Assembly (NCBI GenBank): GCA_036274595.1
Contig: DASUFL010000056.1
Coordinates: 28,030 to 92,029, forward strand
DNA: 64,000 bases
From: Candidatus Eiseniibacteriota bacterium
GTDB lineage: Bacteria; Eisenbacteria; RBG-16-71-46; SZUA-252
Direction: 5' to 3'
Each line of letters starts with the position of its first letter. Position 1 is the first letter of the stretch. The notes under the pieces are model-generated. The model was not told the origin of the DNA. It saw only the letters and a program-made list of their open reading frames with translations, and searched no databases. The translations under genes and the position numbers were made by a program. Below are positions 39,854-62,757 of this stretch, in pieces.

Positions 39854-39909
39854 CCGTGTCTCCTCGGAACCGTAGGGCTCTGCATCGGCCGGGCTCGGCC
39901 GGGCACCGA

Positions 39910-42783
39910 TTATGCCATGTCGAAGGCGGCGGTGAGGAGCCGCTCCTGCTCCAGGCGGTGGCTGCTCAGGGCGCCGCTCGCGGGAGTCGCGGCCTCGGGA
40001 CGCGTGACGCCGCTCAGGGGATGCCGTCCGAACAAGGATGTGCCGAATCGCGCCAGGATGTAGCTCCAGGCGCCCATGTTCTCGGCCTCCTCCTGGACCC
40101 AGACCACCGGCGTTCCGTCCCGCGCGCCCTGGACCACGGGCTCGAGCGCGCCCGCCGCGAGCGGGTAGAGCTGCTCCACGCGCGCGATGGCGATGTCCTT
40201 TCGCTTCAGCGATTCCCGCTTCGCCACGAGCTCGTAGTAGATCTTGCCGGAGCAGAGGAGGATCCGTTTCGCGTCCGCCGGCTTCACGATGAGATCGGGA
40301 ATCACGCGCTGGAACCTGCCGCGCGTGAGATCGGCGATCGGCGAGACGCAGGCGGGATGGCGGAGGAGGCTCTTCGGCGTCATCACGACGAGCGGCTTTC
40401 GCCAAGGGCGCACGACCTGGCGCCGAAGCACGTGGAAGTACTGCGCCGGCGTCGAGGGATAGACGACCTGGATGTTGTCCTTGGCCGCGAGCTGGAGGAA
40501 GCGCTCCAGCCGTGCGCTCGAATGCTCCGACCCCTGTCCCTCGAGTCCGTGCGGCAGGAGGAGCACGAGCGCCGAGAGCCGGCGCCACTTCTCTTCGCCC
40601 GACACCAGGAATTGGTCGATGATCACCTGCGCCGCGTTCACGAAGTCGCCGAACTGCGCCTCCCAGAGCGTGAGACCGGCCGGGCATTCGAGGCTGTAGC
40701 CGTACTCGAAGCCGACCACCCCGACTTCGCTGAGCGGGCTGTTGATGATGTCGACGGGCGCCTGATCCTTCGACAGGTGCTGCAGCGCGACGTGGAGCCT
40801 TCCGTTCTCCGCGTCGAAGAGCCCCGCGTGCCGCTGGCTGAACGTGCCGCGGAGGCTGTCCTGTCCGGACAGGCGGACGCGCGCGCCTTCGAGCGCGAGG
40901 CTCCCGAAGGCGACCGACTCCGCCGAGGCCCAGTCGAGCGGCTTCTCGCCGCGCGCCATCTGGCGTTTCAGCTCGAGGCCGCGCCGGGCCTTGGGATGGG
41001 GATGGAATCCCTCCGGCACGGAGGCCTGGGCCTCGAGGATCCTGGACGCGCGCTCGAGGGTGATGCCGGTGTCCGGCTCGGGGACGTCCGCGTCCGGGCC
41101 GCCCTTGTAGTCGGTCCACGCCTCCGTGAGCGATTCGACTGTCAGGTGCCCGTCGCCGTTCCTGGCGTGCGTCAGCTCCTCCTCGAGGAAGGCGCGCTTG
41201 GCCCGCGCGAATCCGTCGGCCTCGTCGCGCGTCACCCGGCCAAGGCGGATCAGCTCGTCCCGGTAGCGCTCGTGCACCGGCGCGCGGGCCGCGATCGTGC
41301 GGTAGAGCTGGGGCTGCGTGAAGGCGGGTTCGTCCCCCTCGTTGTGCCCGTGCCGGCGATACCCGTAGAGATCGATGACCACGTCGCGATGGAACTGCTG
41401 GCGGAACTCCATCGCGAGGCGCGTCACGTACAGGACCGCCTCGAGATCCTCGCCGTTCACGTGGAAGATCGGCACCTGGAGCATGCGCGCGACGTCGGTC
41501 GCGTACGGCGTCGACCGGCCTTCCTCGGGAAGCGTGGTGAATCCGATCTGGTTGTTCACGATGACGTGGAGCGTGCCGCCGGTCTTGTAGCCGGCGAGCT
41601 GGCTCATGTTGAGCACCTCCTGCACCACGCCCTCGCCCGCGAACGCGGCGTCGCCGTGGATCAGGAGCACCATGCCCATGTCGCCCGAACGATCGCCGAC
41701 CCTGTCCTGCTTGGCGCGCATCCGGCCGACCGCGACGGGATCGACGTACTCGAGGTGGCTCGGGTTGTAGCAGAGCGAGAGGTGCATCGCCCCCCCGCTC
41801 TCCGTCTCGAGATCGACGCTGTAGCCGAGGTGGTACTTCACGTCCCCCTTCCCCACGTACATCTCCGGATCGGCGTCCTCGAACTCGCGGAAGATGCGGC
41901 GAGGAGCCTTCCCCATGACGTTGGCGAGCACATTGAGCCGCCCGCGATGCGCCATGCCCATCACGATCTCGCACTGCCCCTGGCGCGATGCCGTCTCGAT
42001 CACGAGATCGAGGAGCGGGATCAGGGACTCGGAGCCCTCGAGCGAGAAGCTCTTCGAGCCGATGTACTTCTTCTGGATGAAGTCCTCGAAGACCTGCGCC
42101 TCGGTGAGGCGGCGCAGGACCTTCACCTGCTCCTCGCGAGAGAGGACGGCGTGATTCTGCGAGCGCTCCATCCGGTGCTGGAGCCACTCGCGGATGGACG
42201 TGTCCTCGATGTGGAGGTAATGCGCGCCCACCGACCCGCAGTAGGTCCGCTTCAGGCGCTCCAAGATCTGGCGCATCGGGACGGGCGCGCCGTCCGAGAT
42301 GGGATCGGCGATCGTCCGGTCGAGGTCCGCCTCGGTGAAGCCGAAGTAGGCGGGCTCGAGGTCGCTCGGCATGGGTCGCGGAGCGCCCAGCGGATCGACC
42401 TTGGCGATCAGGTGCCCGCGCGCGCGGAAGCTCCGGAAGAGCGCCTCCGCGCTCCTCGCGAACTCGGCGGTCGAGTCCACGGCTTCGGCCGTCGCGGGGG
42501 CGCCGTTCGACGGGGTGCGCGCGACGAAGGTCCCGATCATCCCGGCCCGATCTACGTTCGACGGCACGCGCGCCCTGGTCGCGCGTCCGAAGAGCCGCTG
42601 GGGCGGGAACGAGGGGTTGAGCTGGGGCCGGGAGGCGAAGCCGTTCGCTTCCGGCGCCAGCGTCTGGAAGTATTCCCGCCACGCCTCCGGAACCGACTCC
42701 CGATCGCGGAGGAATTCGGCGTAGAGGGCCTCCACGAAGGGGAGGCTCAGCGTATTGGGGCCTTGTGGGTCGAAATCGGACAT
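39910..42783 (-). CDS. sucA: 2-oxoglutarate dehydrogenase E1 component
   Basis: 957 aa. N-terminal …FVEALYAEFLRD…, the TPP-binding region (…HRGRLNVLANVMGK…GDAAFAGEGVV…) and the C-terminal transketolase-like domain are present. ATG at 42783. Confidence 0.9.
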   Translation of the reverse strand: MSDFDPQGPNTLSLPFVEALYAEFLRDRESVPEAWREYFQTLAPEANGFASRPQLNPSFPPQRLFGRATRARVPSNVDRAGMIGTFVARTPSNGAPATAEAVDSTAEFARSAEALFRSFRARGHLIAKVDPLGAPRPMPSDLEPAYFGFTEADLDRTIADPISDGAPVPMRQILERLKRTYCGSVGAHYLHIEDTSIREWLQHRMERSQNHAVLSREEQVKVLRRLTEAQVFEDFIQKKYIGSKSFSLEGSESLIPLLDLVIETASRQGQCEIVMGMAHRGRLNVLANVMGKAPRRIFREFEDADPEMYVGKGDVKYHLGYSVDLETESGGAMHLSLCYNPSHLEYVDPVAVGRMRAKQDRVGDRSGDMGMVLLIHGDAAFAGEGVVQEVLNMSQLAGYKTGGTLHVIVNNQIGFTTLPEEGRSTPYATDVARMLQVPIFHVNGEDLEAVLYVTRLAMEFRQQFHRDVVIDLYGYRRHGHNEGDEPAFTQPQLYRTIAARAPVHERYRDELIRLGRVTRDEADGFARAKRAFLEEELTHARNGDGHLTVESLTEAWTDYKGGPDADVPEPDTGITLERASRILEAQASVPEGFHPHPKARRGLELKRQMARGEKPLDWASAESVAFGSLALEGARVRLSGQDSLRGTFSQRHAGLFDAENGRLHVALQHLSKDQAPVDIINSPLSEVGVVGFEYGYSLECPAGLTLWEAQFGDFVNAAQVIIDQFLVSGEEKWRRLSALVLLLPHGLEGQGSEHSSARLERFLQLAAKDNIQVVYPSTPAQYFHVLRRQVVRPWRKPLVVMTPKSLLRHPACVSPIADLTRGRFQRVIPDLIVKPADAKRILLCSGKIYYELVAKRESLKRKDIAIARVEQLYPLAAGALEPVVQGARDGTPVVWVQEEAENMGAWSYILARFGTSLFGRHPLSGVTRPEAATPASGALSSHRLEQERLLTAAFDMA

Positions 42784-58875: not shown

Positions 58876-59503
58876 TCTCGTCGAGCCCCGTGATGCCGAG
58901 CGCCTCTTCCACCACCGCGGAGCCCGCCCAGGGAGCGCAGAGCGTGATCGCCTCGCGGACGCCGGCGCGCTTGCCGCCGACGTTCACCGCGCCGATCGCG
59001 TGCGACCGGAGCTGCCGCCACGCTCCGGTGACGGTGAGGATCGCCACCACCGCGTACTCGCGCTCGACCGCGCCGAGGGCCGGACGAGAGAGCGTCTTGC
59101 CGTATCCCTCGAGCACCATCCACGACGCGAGGTCGGGCGAGAGCCCGCGCATCGTGGCGACCAGCTTCTCGTAGTTCGATCCGTAGACCCGCCGGCAGAG
59201 CTCCGTGCCTGCGCGCTCCCATTCCGCTGGATCGACCGGTGCCGCGGCCTTGGGAATGCCGCCCGCGCGCTCGAGCACGTCGCGCGCCGCGAAGAGCGCC
59301 TCGATCGCGCGCGGAAAGCCGACGAAGAGATAGGACTGGAGGATGGCTTCGTAGAGCGCGGCCGCCGGGACGCCTGACTCGAGCGCCAGCGCGGCCTCGC
59401 GGGCCACCGATTCGGAATCGGCCGCCGCGATCGCGGCCGACAGCGTGACGAGCCTGGCGACTCCTGAGTCGAGCGCTTGATCGGAGCCACGCGCGTCGCG
59501 CAT
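58853..59503 (-). CDS. Carboxymuconolactone-decarboxylase / AhpD-like family protein
   Basis: The all-helical 216-aa product (…AALYEAILQSYLFVGFPRAIEAL…) fits the CMD/AhpD-like fold. ATG at 59503. Confidence 0.6.
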   Translation of the reverse strand: MRDARGSDQALDSGVARLVTLSAAIAAADSESVAREAALALESGVPAAALYEAILQSYLFVGFPRAIEALFAARDVLERAGGIPKAAAPVDPAEWERAGTELCRRVYGSNYEKLVATMRGLSPDLASWMVLEGYGKTLSRPALGAVEREYAVVAILTVTGAWRQLRSHAIGAVNVGGKRAGVREAITLCAPWAGSAVVEEALGITGLDENGSGQGG

Positions 59504-59514
59504 CCTCGCAATCT

Positions 59515-60717
59515 ATGGGCCTGGGCGGGGCGTGTCAATCGATCGGGACCGCGCTCGCCGTCATCGCCGGCGCGACGTGGCTCGTCCTCGCCTGTCGCTT
59601 CGCGCTCGGTGGCCGCCGGCTCGCCAGCCTGGGGCGCGTCGAGCCTCTGCCGGACGCCCAGCTCCCCTCGCTCACGGTGATCGTCGCTGCCAAGGACGAG
59701 GAGCGGCGCGTGGAGCAGGCGGCGCGCTCGCTCCTCGCGCAGGACTATCCCGGGCTCAGGGTGTCGGTCGTCGACGACCGCTCGACCGACGCCACGCCCC
59801 AGATCCTCGGCCGTCTCGCGGTGGAGGATCCGCGCCTCACGGTGACGCGGATCGACGAGCTCCCGGGCGGATGGACGGGGAAGTCGCACGCGCTCGCCGC
59901 GGCCGCCGCGCGGGCCACGACGGAGTGGCTCCTCTTCACCGACGGCGACGTGGATCTCGCGCCCCACGCCTGCCGCCGTGCGGTCTCGCTCGCGGCGCGC
60001 GATGGAAGGGATCACCTCGCCGTCGGCCCGGATCTCGAAGTCGAGACCCTCGGCGAGGCGATCTTCATCGCGTACTTCGTGATCATGTTCCACGTGAGCC
60101 AGGAGCCCTGGAAGGCGCAGGACCCGCGGTCCCGGGGATCGATCGGGATCGGCGCCTTCAACCTCGTCCGCAGGGACGTCTACGAGCGCGCGGGCGGGCA
60201 TGCGGCCATCCGCTTCGAGCTGATCGACGATCTCGCGCTGGGACGGCTCCTCAAGCGAAGCGGCGCGCGCCAGGCGTTCGCGCTCCCGGCGGGGCTCGTC
60301 GGCGTGCGTTGGCACATCGGCGTGCGCGGCCTCGTCCGGGGAGTCGAGAAGAACGCGTTTGCCGCCGTCGGCTATCGTACCGTTCCCGCGATCCTCGCCG
60401 TCGTCGCGCAGCTCACGATCGCGGTCCTGCCGGTGTTCGGCCTCTTTCTCCCCGGGTGGATCCCCAAGGTCGGCGCGATCGCCGCATGGGCGGGCGCGGC
60501 TCTCGCCTACTTCGTCGCGTCACGGAGCGTCCGAGTGCGGCCGTGGCAGGTCGTGTTCATGCCGGTGGGCGGGATCCTCTTTTCCTACGCGTTCCTTCGG
60601 TCGACGCTCCTGACGCTCGCCCGAGGCGGGGTCGTCTGGCGGGGGACATTCTACTCGCTGCGTGACCTCAGGCAGCGTCAGGACAGGCAGGTCTCACCCG
60701 CAAGGACAGGCGACTGA
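59515..60717 (+). CDS. Family-2 glycosyltransferase with C-terminal TM segments
   Basis: PSLTVIVAAKDEE…VSVVDDRSTD…TDGDVDL fits the GT-A DxD pattern. TM helices at both ends. ATG at 59515, only 11 nt from the divergent AhpD-like start. Confidence 0.8.
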   Translation: MGLGGACQSIGTALAVIAGATWLVLACRFALGGRRLASLGRVEPLPDAQLPSLTVIVAAKDEERRVEQAARSLLAQDYPGLRVSVVDDRSTDATPQILGRLAVEDPRLTVTRIDELPGGWTGKSHALAAAAARATTEWLLFTDGDVDLAPHACRRAVSLAARDGRDHLAVGPDLEVETLGEAIFIAYFVIMFHVSQEPWKAQDPRSRGSIGIGAFNLVRRDVYERAGGHAAIRFELIDDLALGRLLKRSGARQAFALPAGLVGVRWHIGVRGLVRGVEKNAFAAVGYRTVPAILAVVAQLTIAVLPVFGLFLPGWIPKVGAIAAWAGAALAYFVASRSVRVRPWQVVFMPVGGILFSYAFLRSTLLTLARGGVVWRGTFYSLRDLRQRQDRQVSPARTGD

Positions 60718-60726
60718 ACCCTTGGA

Positions 60727-60763
60727 CAATAAAAGACCCCCGGGAGCGTGGGGCTCCCGGGGG
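60727..60763. terminator. Strong hairpin CCCCCGGGAGC-GTGGG-GCTCCCGGGGG with flanking A-tract (bidirectional; on the minus strand it is followed by TCTTTTATTG)
   Basis: A perfect 11-bp stem. It lies 20 nt after the GT2 stop on the plus strand and about 100 nt downstream of the small minus-strand peptide ORF. Confidence 0.6.
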
Positions 60764-60832
60764 GTGTCGTCGCGTATCACGTGGGGGGTCAGGGCATTTC
60801 GATACGCGACGCAAGTGCGTCATCAGCGCCTG

Positions 60833-60857
60833 CCGGGCTTCCTGGCCCGGTTTCGCT
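60833..60857 (+). terminator. Hairpin CCGGGC-TTCCTG-GCCCGG followed by TTTCGCTGCTT
   Basis: A 6-bp stem plus a T-rich tail on the plus strand. It is a possible plus-strand terminator downstream of the GT2 gene. Confidence 0.35.
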
Positions 60858-60862
60858 GCTTG

Positions 60863-60931
60863 CTACGCGATCAGCATCGGCAGCAGCGCGATGAAGAGGC
60901 TCGCCGCCACCAAACCCAGCTTTTTCATCAT
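60863..60931 (-). CDS. Candidate 22-aa hydrophobic peptide MMKKLGLVAASLFIALLPMLIA
   Basis: ATGATG follows an SD-like GAGG 11 nt upstream. The ORF sits in a lower-GC non-coding island with its own downstream hairpin terminator. The call is speculative. Confidence 0.3.
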   Translation of the reverse strand: MMKKLGLVAASLFIALLPMLIA

Positions 60932-61154
60932 CTCAAGAAACCTCAGGCTACCGTTGTCTAACGGCCGCCCCCCTGTCGCGTGAATCTCCGCATACCGTGT
61001 GCCATGGATGTCACCCCTGTCAGATTTACCTTCAACGCGATGCAACAGTTCGGTTAATGGCATCGGTAATTATTGAACCACAAGGGATTGTCGGCGGATT
61101 CGCGATCGCGAAGGTACAGGATCGTACGATCGAGTACGTTGCGGAGCGTCGAAC

Positions 61155-62306
61155 CTATTTCGTTTCGACACCTCGAGCGAAGAGCTCCGACAGCTCGTCG
61201 ACAACGGATCGATACGCTTCGACACCCGGAGCGCGGACACGCGCGCCGGCTGGAAGCGGTACGGTCCACTCAGCCAGCGGGGTGCCGAGCGCGTGCGTGA
61301 ACAATCCAGACGGCGTGACCCACGGCGCCGACGGCCAGATCTCGGCCCCCTCGGATCGGGCCTTCGCCGTGTGGATCAGAGCCTGCACCGACGGGTGATA
61401 GAGATTGAGCCGATCCCATCGGAAGCCCTCGGCCCGCTCCACCTTCGAGTCGGGCGCCAAGGCGCGAGCGCGCTCCAGGAGGGCGGCCGGATCCATGTCC
61501 TCGGCCCCCTCGATCGTGACCCAGGCCCTGGGGCGATCCGGGTGGGCCACCGGCGGCTTGGCGACGCGCCCGATCGGCGCGAACAGAGCGTTCCGGAGCC
61601 GATCCTCGCCGTCGCCAAGGAGCGGCTCGGCCACCGTTTCCTCCAGGAAGTCGAGCGCGTCCGGCTGCCCCGCGAGCTTTCGGAGGAGCTCGAAGTCGAG
61701 CGGTCTCGGCCCGTACGCGGCGTCGGCCAGCTCCGCCACGAGGCTGTCGCGAAGCCTGTAGGGATTCGACTCGCCGCCCCAGAGACCGAGCACGACCAGC
61801 CCTCGCGCGCCGAGGAAGACGCGTCGCCGCCGCAACGTTTGGGATCCGACGCGGGGCCAGAACGCCGCCTTGGCCTGGAGCGAGGGACGGTGGTCGCCGA
61901 GCACCGCCTCGAGCACGAGCGACCCATGGCCCGCCCCCGGCGGCACCACCAGGGCGGGCAGTCCCGGCAGCGCGCCAGATCCGATCGCCGCCGCGAGCGC
62001 GCCGACCGAGGCCGCGAGCGCGAGCCGTTCCCCCCCTTCCGCCGCCGCGGGTGCCACGGGGTGGGCTTCCGCGCTCCAGGAACCGAAGACTGTGAGACTG
62101 GGCGCGGCGGCGGCGGGTGGAAGGAGCAGGAAGGTCGGGACAGGTGACGTGGTTTCAATCAGTTCGAGCCCGAGAGCCGTGGCCGACCGACCGAGCGCTC
62201 GGCGTGCGGCGCCGACGGTGTGCTGCGGCAATGTCTCGCGGCCGAGCTCGATAAGCTCTTGGAAGTACGTCAGATGATCGTCGATTTGTCCCCGGCTGAG
62301 GGGCAT
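61155..62306 (-). CDS. Hypothetical protein (383 aa), family not recognised
   Basis: ATG at 62306 is preceded by SD GGGAGG 4 nt upstream. The upstream extension of the ORF to 62447 lacks an SD. Confidence 0.5.
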   Translation of the reverse strand: MPLSRGQIDDHLTYFQELIELGRETLPQHTVGAARRALGRSATALGLELIETTSPVPTFLLLPPAAAAPSLTVFGSWSAEAHPVAPAAAEGGERLALAASVGALAAAIGSGALPGLPALVVPPGAGHGSLVLEAVLGDHRPSLQAKAAFWPRVGSQTLRRRRVFLGARGLVVLGLWGGESNPYRLRDSLVAELADAAYGPRPLDFELLRKLAGQPDALDFLEETVAEPLLGDGEDRLRNALFAPIGRVAKPPVAHPDRPRAWVTIEGAEDMDPAALLERARALAPDSKVERAEGFRWDRLNLYHPSVQALIHTAKARSEGAEIWPSAPWVTPSGLFTHALGTPLAEWTVPLPAGARVRAPGVEAYRSVVDELSELFARGVETK

Positions 62307-62395
62307 GACGCCTCCCAATCGCTTCCGGTCAAGAACGAGCCGCACCCAAAGGGCAGGATAGCGCATCCATTCCCTTGAAATGACGTGATTTGTGC

Positions 62396-62424
62396 TTGAC
62401 ACCCCCTTGGGCCCGGTGGACGAT
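62396..62424 (+). promoter_or_regulatory. Candidate promoter TTGACA-17-GACGAT upstream of the zinc-ribbon gene
   Basis: A consensus -35 TTGACA lies at 62396-62401. The -10 is weak. Confidence 0.3.
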
Positions 62425-62491
62425 CGGCCCATGGGGGCGAGGTGCACCCACCGCGCCTCGCCGGGGATTTCGTGTGGAGGGGGAGAACCGT

Positions 62492-62683
62492 ATGGAAGCC
62501 AAGTTTCCTGAATGCCGAAAGTGTTCTGCGGGAGTCTTGATACCGCTTTCGGACTACGGCAGGGACGGCGCCCCGATCACCTACAAAGCCTGGGTTTGCA
62601 CCAACCCCACCTGCGGCTACAACGTCCGCATCGACAACGGTGAGATCAGTCTGGGCCGCGCCATCGGTCCGTCGAGCAAGTAG
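62492..62683 (+). CDS. Small zinc-ribbon protein (63 aa)
   Basis: SD GGAGGGGGAG lies 5 nt before the ATG at 62492. CRKC…(21)…CTNPTC gives a CxxC / CxxxxC pair. Confidence 0.5.
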   Translation: MEAKFPECRKCSAGVLIPLSDYGRDGAPITYKAWVCTNPTCGYNVRIDNGEISLGRAIGPSSK

Positions 62684-62757
62684 CTTCGCTCGCAGCCTCT
62701 GACGCGACCCGCCCCGCGTATGCTTCCGCGGGCGGACCTTGGCCCATCGGAACGATC

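Follow-up and report, generated by a model that had tools for sequence, protein, structure and literature searches.

We analysed a 64,000-nucleotide stretch of DNA from Candidatus Eisenbacteria (GenBank assembly GCA_036274595.1, contig DASUFL010000056.1; hereafter the window) and report here on the gap near its end that separates a gene for a GT2 glycosyltransferase from a gene for a 383-residue protein. The gap appears to be a single minus-strand transcription unit, in which an enhancer-like site, a promoter, a short open reading frame (ORF), hairpins and a terminator would follow one another (Table 1), and its product would be a small regulatory RNA (sRNA) that also encodes a 22-residue peptide.

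A first-pass annotation of this gap had described it as less GC-rich than its surroundings, and the GC content is indeed 0.525-0.53 at 60900-61199, as compared to about 0.70 on both flanks. The promoter and enhancer region is what makes the island lower in GC, and the minimum falls where it does because the conserved AT-rich blocks between promoter and enhancer lie there. The same annotation had listed a minus-strand ORF for a 22-residue peptide with a Shine-Dalgarno (SD)-like GAGG, a 6-bp hairpin and a perfect 11-bp hairpin terminator with a T tract, all of which are present, the 6-bp hairpin being extended by CAGCG/CGCTG arms. The inverted repeat that it had reported has the 22-nt spacing given for it, but its arms are 11 bp long rather than 10 bp. 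The promoter and the enhancer were overlooked in that annotation, and its emphasis on a toxin was wrong. Only two ORFs in the gap are longer than that of the peptide, namely a 66-residue in-frame upstream extension of it and a 99-residue ORF on the plus strand. We rejected the 66-residue extension, as it overlaps the predicted promoter and, in relatives, either starts differently or is absent.

Table 1. Positions of the gap, its predicted features and the two flanking genes (window coordinates; arrows give the direction of reading)
Feature	Position	Strand	Description
Gap	60718-61154		Between the GT2 stop (60717, +) and the stop of the minus-strand ORF (61155)
Candidate enhancer (upstream activator site)	61138->61114	-	CGTAC-TCGATC-GTACG-ATCCT-GTAC; three GTAC half-sites about 10 bp apart
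AT-rich spacer blocks	61050-61086	-	CCCTTGTG ... AATAATTACCGATGCCATTAA; between enhancer and promoter
Sigma-54-type promoter (putative)	61004->60990	-	TGGCACACGGTATGC (TGGCAC-ACGGT-ATGC; -24 GG / -12 GC)
Predicted full transcript	60729-60978	-	About 250 nt; ends placed from the promoter and terminator positions
GGGGGG run	60968-60973	-	About +6 to +11 of the predicted RNA
SD-like GAGG	60944-60941	-	9 nt upstream of the first ATG
Small ORF	60931->60863	-	MMKKLGLVAASLFIALLPMLIA (ATGATG...TAG, 22 residues); basic N-terminus, then about 17 hydrophobic residues
Clade-specific hairpin	60824-60858	-	Between ORF stop and core hairpin; CAGCG-CCGGGC...GCCCGG-CGCTG; arms CCGGGC/GCCCGG 60833-60838 / 60845-60850 (together 60833-60850) and CAGCG/CGCTG 60824-60828 / 60854-60858
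Core hairpin	60768-60811	-	11-bp stem (60768-60778 / 60801-60811), 22-nt loop
Loop motif (proposed seed)	60795->60782	-	GCCCUGACCCCCCA; invariant 14-mer including CCCCCC
Intrinsic terminator	60727-60763	-	11-bp stem (60737-60747 / 60753-60763), 5-nt loop, then UCUUUUAUUG
GT2 glycosyltransferase gene	59515-60717	+	Convergent with the RNA unit
Upstream 383-residue protein gene	61155-62447	-	430-residue ORF; start probably 62306

A conserved RNA element and its strand

The two hairpins at the 3' end of the predicted transcript fold at -45.1 kcal/mol (z = -7.1 against dinucleotide shuffles), and the whole arrangement of the gap recurs in 75 other loci, so its features are not due to chance. Representatives of four clades form the same two hairpins, with z scores of -3.3 to -7.1.

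Relatives of the locus were fetched through the protein encoded by the upstream gene, which yielded 18 genome contigs at 46-91% protein identity, 17 of which reach far enough to be used. Fourteen of the 18 loci are labelled Candidatus Eisenbacteria; the other four carry labels of other candidate taxa and have the same synteny. Four elements stand in the same order in the genome loci: the GTAC-repeat motif, TGGCA...TGC, the hairpin with the loop motif and the terminator hairpin with its T tract. The 14-mer of the loop is exact in 17/17 usable genome loci, despite flanking proteins that are only 46-60% identical in most of them, and it occurs once in the window. Three of the loci with deviating labels (L008, L014 and L016, labelled Candidatus Binatia, Limnocylindrales and Omnitrophota) contain the element in the same synteny at about 46-54% flanking-protein identity, and these labels look like binning or classification errors rather than other phyla.

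We built a covariance model from the genome loci and scanned metagenomes with a pattern consisting of the 14-mer, YG, 36-50 nt and TTTT. Of 66 hits, 58 score 65-102 bits in the model and show the full architecture; the other 8 score at most 18 bits and have no hairpin, and are therefore chance matches. The window element itself scores 100.6 bits (60726-60818, minus strand). The 75 further loci thus comprise 17 Eisenbacteria-type genome contigs and 58 metagenome contigs, with one copy each, and the covariance model found no second copy of the RNA in the window or in 567 kb of the loci. As the metagenome loci were fetched by the exact 14-mer, its presence there is not independent evidence.

Both hairpins covary. 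On a MAFFT alignment made blind to structure, the positions of the core stem are 94.7% paired, with 3 compensatory pairs, as compared to 14-54% for partners slid along the alignment. On an alignment of 55 sequences (53 distinct) that was fitted to the model, the core stem is 94.3% paired with 4 compensatory pairs, and the terminator stem, whose sequence varies by clade, is 99.1% paired with compensatory changes at 7/11 pairs; over all pairs, 96.7% of the cells are paired (35-55% when slid) and 11/22 pairs show compensatory changes. The structured flank that had been offered as a sign of an sRNA locus is thus a conserved, covarying RNA element. The hairpin between the ORF and the core hairpin has a compensatory change in locus L003 (CCGGAG/CTCCGG), and it was not seen in clades other than that of the window.

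The invariant part of the core hairpin is its asymmetric loop and not the arms of its stem. In the comparison across loci this loop contains GCCCTGACCCCCCA, and G-rich mRNA sites that pair with it would be complementary to CUGACCCCCC. Partition-function calculations predict that the run of C residues in the loop is unpaired in most lineages (paired probability about 0.12-0.16). The loop of the terminator hairpin is CCCAC in the window's clade only, and elsewhere it has unrelated sequences (CCAAAA, CAUCAAG and others).

Two features fix the strand of the RNA as minus. One position of the core stem is U-G in 40/53 sequences, which pairs on the minus-strand RNA and would be C-A on the other strand. 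In addition, the terminator, with a perfect stem in which 10/11 pairs are G-C, is the sole terminator-like site in 60500-61400, and it has a T tract on the minus strand only (U tract TCTTTTATTG), so that it would terminate minus-strand transcription.

Predicted promoter and upstream activator site

Upstream of the ORF and hairpins, a TGGCAC-N5-ATGC sequence is a candidate sigma-54 promoter; the established consensus of this class is TGGCAC-N5-TTGC. It would place the start of transcription at about 60978 (+/-3). Among 53 unique promoter segments from the related loci, TGGCA and TGC are invariant and the flanking positions carry almost no information. The pattern TGGCA[CT]-N5-NTGC has only two matches on both strands of the window (128 kb of two-strand sequence). 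The second of them, TGGCATAATCGGTGC at 39903-39917 on the minus strand, was set aside as probably a chance match; it overlaps a sucA-like gene at its stop codon, a sucB-like gene starts about 50 nt further on, and there is no GTAC enhancer.

The candidate enhancer begins 16 nt past the stop codon of the upstream gene, and its pattern, GTAC-N6-GTAC-N5-8-GTAC, occurs nowhere else in the window. In 52 unique upstream sequences aCGTAC-N6-GTACG is invariant, usually followed by a third GTAC, and in 55/67 loci CGTAC-N6-GTACG lies 132-135 nt upstream of TGGCA, a spacing that would be the geometry of a site for an enhancer-binding protein. All five sequences from the window's clade have identical AT-rich blocks in the spacer, whereas adjacent spacer positions vary, and other clades have T tracts or AT-rich runs at the equivalent place; these blocks are possibly sites of DNA bending or of binding by a second regulator. 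From the position and conservation of these signals, the unit appears to be transcribed from a sigma-54 promoter that needs an enhancer.

The peptide reading frame, its absence in some lineages and the neighbouring genes

The first-pass annotation had suggested that a small hydrophobic protein was missed at this locus, and had proposed a search for homologous ORFs and an examination of their synonymous and non-synonymous substitutions. We found homologous ORFs of 18-24 residues in 33 loci (25 unique DNA sequences), each of them after a G-rich SD-like stretch, with the consensus M-[LFIM]-[RK]-[KRH]-[LF]-x-L-[VA]-A-A-[CS]-L-[FP]-[LI]-A... Summed over the 15 codons that align, the entropy at the three codon positions is 13.2 / 5.2 / 20.0, the third position being the most variable, and the pooled ratio of non-synonymous to synonymous change (pN/pS) is 0.43. 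Codons for Arg, Leu and Ala swap freely, Ser is encoded by AGC/AGT in one clade and by TCC in another, and the length differences between the ORFs are whole codons (indels in multiples of three). This coding pattern in 33 loci bears out the suggestion of an overlooked protein, and it argues that the ORF is under coding selection. The product would be a single-helix membrane peptide. Such a conserved membrane peptide of 20-24 residues is short enough that standard gene callers would probably miss it.

Searches with four representative peptides returned no Pfam or NCBIfam match at E <= 10, toxin families included. A reading of the 'LVAAC' in some peptides as a lipoprotein signal was rejected, as the hydrophobic run leading up to the Cys is too short (about 4 residues) and this Cys is Ser in the window's clade and in the group of loci L047, L048 and L070.

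The loci fall into two size classes. The distance from promoter to loop motif is 47-51 nt in about 35 loci (short forms) and 113-235 nt in the rest (long forms). In the short class about 160 nt including the ORF are missing, and the hairpin and the terminator remain. In these loci transcription is predicted to begin a few nucleotides ahead of the hairpin, with no gene downstream on the same strand, which would leave a small RNA of about 87 nt as the only product. In neighbor-joining trees of both flanking proteins, the short-form loci form one clade and the ORF-bearing loci are spread across all other deep branches. A group nested inside ORF-bearing lineages (L015, L016, L029, L066 and L079) has out-of-frame remnants of the peptide (…LFLAV…) and no usable start. 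In L025, which groups with the ORF-bearing L027 in the GT2 tree, a deletion has removed the start codon and SD sequence relative to its close relative L040. From these patterns, the coding part would have been lost at least 3 times while the promoter, loop and terminator were kept. Repeated loss of the ORF next to an invariant 3' hairpin leads us to regard the RNA hairpin as the conserved core of the element and the peptide as accessory.

A run of at least five G residues (four in a few) stands in the 5' leader of most ORF-bearing long forms that we sampled, and the short forms have none. In the window and at the equivalent positions of L027, L040, L048, L056, L070 and L074, this run lies at about +5 to +12 or serves directly as the SD sequence of the peptide. 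We considered that it might pair with the C-rich loop and so mask either the seed or the ribosome-binding site of the peptide, a pairing that is present in the minimum-energy fold of the window's RNA. It was rejected as a conserved feature: the duplex energies are no better than those of shuffled leaders, and the pairing probability from the partition function is about zero in most lineages and, where high, mostly not above shuffles (L027 is an exception).

The order of the 383-residue protein gene, the element and the convergent GT2 gene holds almost wherever the flanks are available. The exceptions are a few loci with an additional gene in between or without a GT2 match downstream. Extra sequence was seen in L024 and L049, where the GT2 gene is about 1250 nt downstream, and in L070 and L082, where the upstream gene ends about 800 nt before the motif. 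The GT2 protein is a full-length match to the hopene-associated glycosyltransferase HpnB at 171 bits, below the cut-off of 379. The 383-residue protein has no sequence match in Pfam, NCBIfam or PDB, and a single-sequence AlphaFold model of it was unusable (pLDDT 36). It is conserved at the 46-91% identity by which its relatives were fetched, and the RNA gene is always alongside. A scan of 60500-61400 found no terminator between this gene and the RNA element.

Further observations concern the outer sides of both neighbors. The ATG of the GT2 gene is only 11 nt (59503-59515) from the start of a divergent gene of the carboxymuconolactone-decarboxylase family. Conservation of the DNA around these two starts (GCGCATCCTCGCAGCCTATG ... 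TGTCAAT) extends to loci whose proteins are only about 55% identical. Upstream of the 383-residue protein gene there is a second stretch of lower GC content (0.60-0.64 at 62200-62700), and a 97-residue plus-strand ORF at 62390-62683 contains two CxxC pairs and has a weak match to DUF1936 (zinc-ribbon; E = 0.004, below cut-off).

Interpretation and comparison with known systems

We consider it probable that the island is a stand-alone minus-strand gene for a dual-function sRNA that depends on sigma-54 and an enhancer and is conserved throughout Candidatus Eisenbacteria. Such a gene could work as follows. An AAA+ enhancer-binding activator encoded elsewhere would bind CGTAC-N6-GTACG and the third GTAC, loop over the AT-rich spacer of about 115 bp and open sigma-54 RNA polymerase at TGGCAC-N5-ATGC; the signals for this step and their fixed spacing are observed. 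Transcription would then run from about 60978 to the intrinsic terminator at 60737-60763, whose signal is evident, and yield an RNA of about 250 nt. The 5' half of this RNA would be translated into the 22-residue single-helix membrane peptide, in line with the coding conservation of the ORF. The 3' half would be the core, a hairpin that displays the invariant, single-stranded 14-mer. Most likely this loop would pair with G-rich, SD-like stretches of mRNAs and thereby regulate how these are translated or how stable they are, in the manner of the C-rich loops of the actinobacterial 6C RNA; we suggest this pairing because the C run is predicted to be unpaired in most lineages and because the 6C RNA provides a precedent.

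Several points weigh against this interpretation. The transcription start, the dependence on sigma-54 and the translation of the ORF are all drawn from sequence. Neither the window nor 502 kb of related loci yielded a gene for RpoN or for an enhancer-binding protein (a protein with GAFTGA or an RpoN box), so the role of sigma-54 continues to stand on the promoter signals. Among the loci with enough upstream sequence, L047 has no canonical -24/-12 match, the only such case, and L083 has no GTAC pair. Pair counts from the 55-sequence alignment are inflated, as it was fitted to the structure, and the invariance of the 14-mer in the metagenome set is partly circular, diverged members being outside the sample. 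A site for protein binding would explain the invariant loop equally well. No conserved target lies near the starts of the two neighboring genes: complementarity between the loop and the start region of the GT2 gene ranks among the top 2-5% in the window's clade only, the median percentile being 0.67 for the GT2 gene and 0.73 for the 383-residue protein gene, and these genes were rejected as targets since the complementarity is not conserved across loci. Lastly, a scan for duplex targets across the window was non-specific in this 70% GC genome, with many G-rich sites scoring about equally.

Other explanations account for parts of these data. The transcript could be the plain mRNA of a small protein or the 3' untranslated region of the 383-residue protein gene, with a hairpin that is bound by an RNA-binding protein or acts in stability or processing and is not a seed. 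In its favor, the ORF is under purifying selection, read-through from the upstream gene is possible with no terminator in between, neither the neighbor-gene scan nor the window scan returned a target, and an invariant 14-nt loop also fits a site for a sequence-specific protein. Nevertheless, we judge it unlikely, as the element has a conserved promoter and enhancer of its own, about half of the lineages, without the ORF, keep the promoter, hairpin and terminator as a unit of about 87 nt, and a loop-exposed run of six C residues is a documented type of seed in high-GC bacteria (PMC6486639). A type I toxin-antitoxin system, as favored by the first-pass annotation, would have the peptide as a membrane toxin whose translation is checked by an antisense or overlapping RNA. 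The peptide does resemble Ibs in size and composition, with a basic N-terminus before a hydrophobic helix, and may be toxic when overproduced. Its mRNA is highly structured, and, as the convergent GT2 gene lacks a U-tract terminator, read-through from it would be antisense to the RNA. However, the peptide belongs to no Pfam or NCBIfam toxin family, and its locus, present once and in strict synteny, is inherited across the phylum rather than being patchy or multi-copy. The promoter would be of the enhancer-dependent sigma-54 type, and no sigma-70-like site was found on either strand of 60500-61400 (by a consensus that may not be that of this phylum), so nothing points to an antisense partner; nor was a conserved feature of the opposite strand noticed in the comparisons of loci. 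Loss of the ORF in at least three lineages that retain an invariant 3' hairpin is the opposite of what a toxin-centered locus leads one to expect, and we regard a toxin-antitoxin system here as improbable.

It is less probable still that the element is a diverged member of the 6C family. 6C is the best Rfam match of the window element (60731-60811, minus strand), and the two share an overall shape, the first of their two hairpins having CCCCCC in its loop and the second serving as terminator. Yet this match has 25.2 bits against a gathering score of 47 (E = 0.57), 8 related loci give no match at the gathering score of any Rfam family, the loop of the second hairpin is C-rich in the window's clade only, and the hosts are Eisenbacteria-type organisms and not Actinobacteria. 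Transcription of C. glutamicum 6C is reported to be SigA/SigB-driven (PMC5014011), as opposed to the sigma-54-type promoter predicted here. We give equally little credence to an element that acts as DNA and not as RNA, such as a palindromic operator or a recombination site for the flanking genes. Both hairpins are inverted repeats in the DNA and the plus strand folds well too (z = -4.8), but the U-G stem position pairs in the minus-strand RNA only, the T tract is confined to one strand, the invariant part is the asymmetric loop and not the repeat arms, and the promoter is positioned to transcribe the hairpins.

On the interpretation as a dual-function sRNA, we can offer a further suggestion, which is possible but on the whole doubtful: the RNA may serve the whole phylum as master regulator of a stress or envelope response under enhancer control, and may also record a transition from mRNA to sRNA. 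The ancestor would have been the mRNA of a small membrane protein, and its 3' hairpin would have acquired, or always had, an essential role in trans, which would have left the coding part free to be deleted or to decay on at least three independent occasions. The peptide and the seed would then act in the same pathway, possibly that of membrane-lipid glycosylation, a link suggested by the invariably adjacent HpnB-like glycosyltransferase gene.

To our knowledge, Candidatus Eisenbacteria has no cultured member, and the literature that we searched describes no regulatory RNA for it. The element supplies a ready-made RNA family for this phylum, comprising about 75 members that are described by a covariance model and have their promoter, enhancer, seed and terminator defined, and it would add an sRNA under sigma-54 and enhancer control outside Proteobacteria. 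Seeds in C-rich loops have so far been documented in high-GC Gram-positives, and the element suggests that GC-rich genomes may rely on them more generally. In addition, its ORF-bearing, ORF-decayed and ORF-less versions on one scaffold offer a comparative system for the gain and loss of the coding half of dual-function RNAs.

Among known systems, the toxins Ibs, Fst and TisB are similar in that a structured RNA encodes a very short peptide, basic at its N-terminus and with a hydrophobic helix, that annotation misses. The Eisenbacteria locus differs from them in that no antitoxin RNA and no family match was found, and in being single-copy and vertically conserved, with an ORF that is evolutionarily dispensable and a non-coding 3' hairpin that is not.

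Sigma-54-dependent sRNA genes include glmY/glmZ (activated by GlrR), Qrr1-5 (LuxO) and CrcZ (CbrB). They share with the predicted control region a -24/-12 promoter, several activator sites clustered at over 100 bp ahead of it and a spacer that can bend. In front of the glmY/glmZ genes, the sigma-54 promoter is preceded by three sites for the activator GlrR and by IHF sites (PMC3045617), to which the three GTAC half-sites and the AT-rich spacer of the Eisenbacteria element are a parallel. CGTAC-N6-GTACG is not known to match the sites of GlrR, LuxO, NtrC, NifA or CbrB, and the Eisenbacteria RNA is unrelated to those of glmY/glmZ, Qrr and CrcZ, with no Rfam match to them.

The 6C RNA (Rfam RF01066, known as B11 in mycobacteria) is likewise an RNA of about 80-100 nt from high-GC organisms, with two hairpins and a six-C run in a loop. 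Binding by its C-rich loops is documented for the panD ribosome-binding site, AGGGGGG, and for other G-rich 5' untranslated regions (PMC6486639). In contrast, the Eisenbacteria element has only one conserved C-rich loop, with a longer motif, and it comes from another phylum, with a sigma-54-type promoter and, in many members, a coding 5' extension.

Dual-function sRNAs are known from SgrS/SgrT, SR1/SR1P, VcdRP and AzuCR. The Eisenbacteria element is like them in that one short transcript would carry a small ORF at the 5' end and a separate regulatory region by the terminator at the 3' end. In Yersinia pestis, SgrS is without the 5' sgrT part and keeps the 3' pairing region (PMC2760806), just as some lineages of the Eisenbacteria element retain the 3' part only. 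The two are not related in sequence: SgrT is a 43-residue protein (PMC2760806), whereas the Eisenbacteria peptide would be a hydrophobic helix of 20-24 residues. Moreover, the promoter of the Eisenbacteria element would be of the sigma-54/enhancer type and its seed would sit in a hairpin loop, and both of its functions are predictions. Rfam 15 contains no family for the element. As judged by analogy, its closest relations are therefore SgrS/SgrT in layout, 6C in the chemistry of the seed, and glmY/glmZ, Qrr and CrcZ in transcriptional control, and it is best filed as a new sRNA family.

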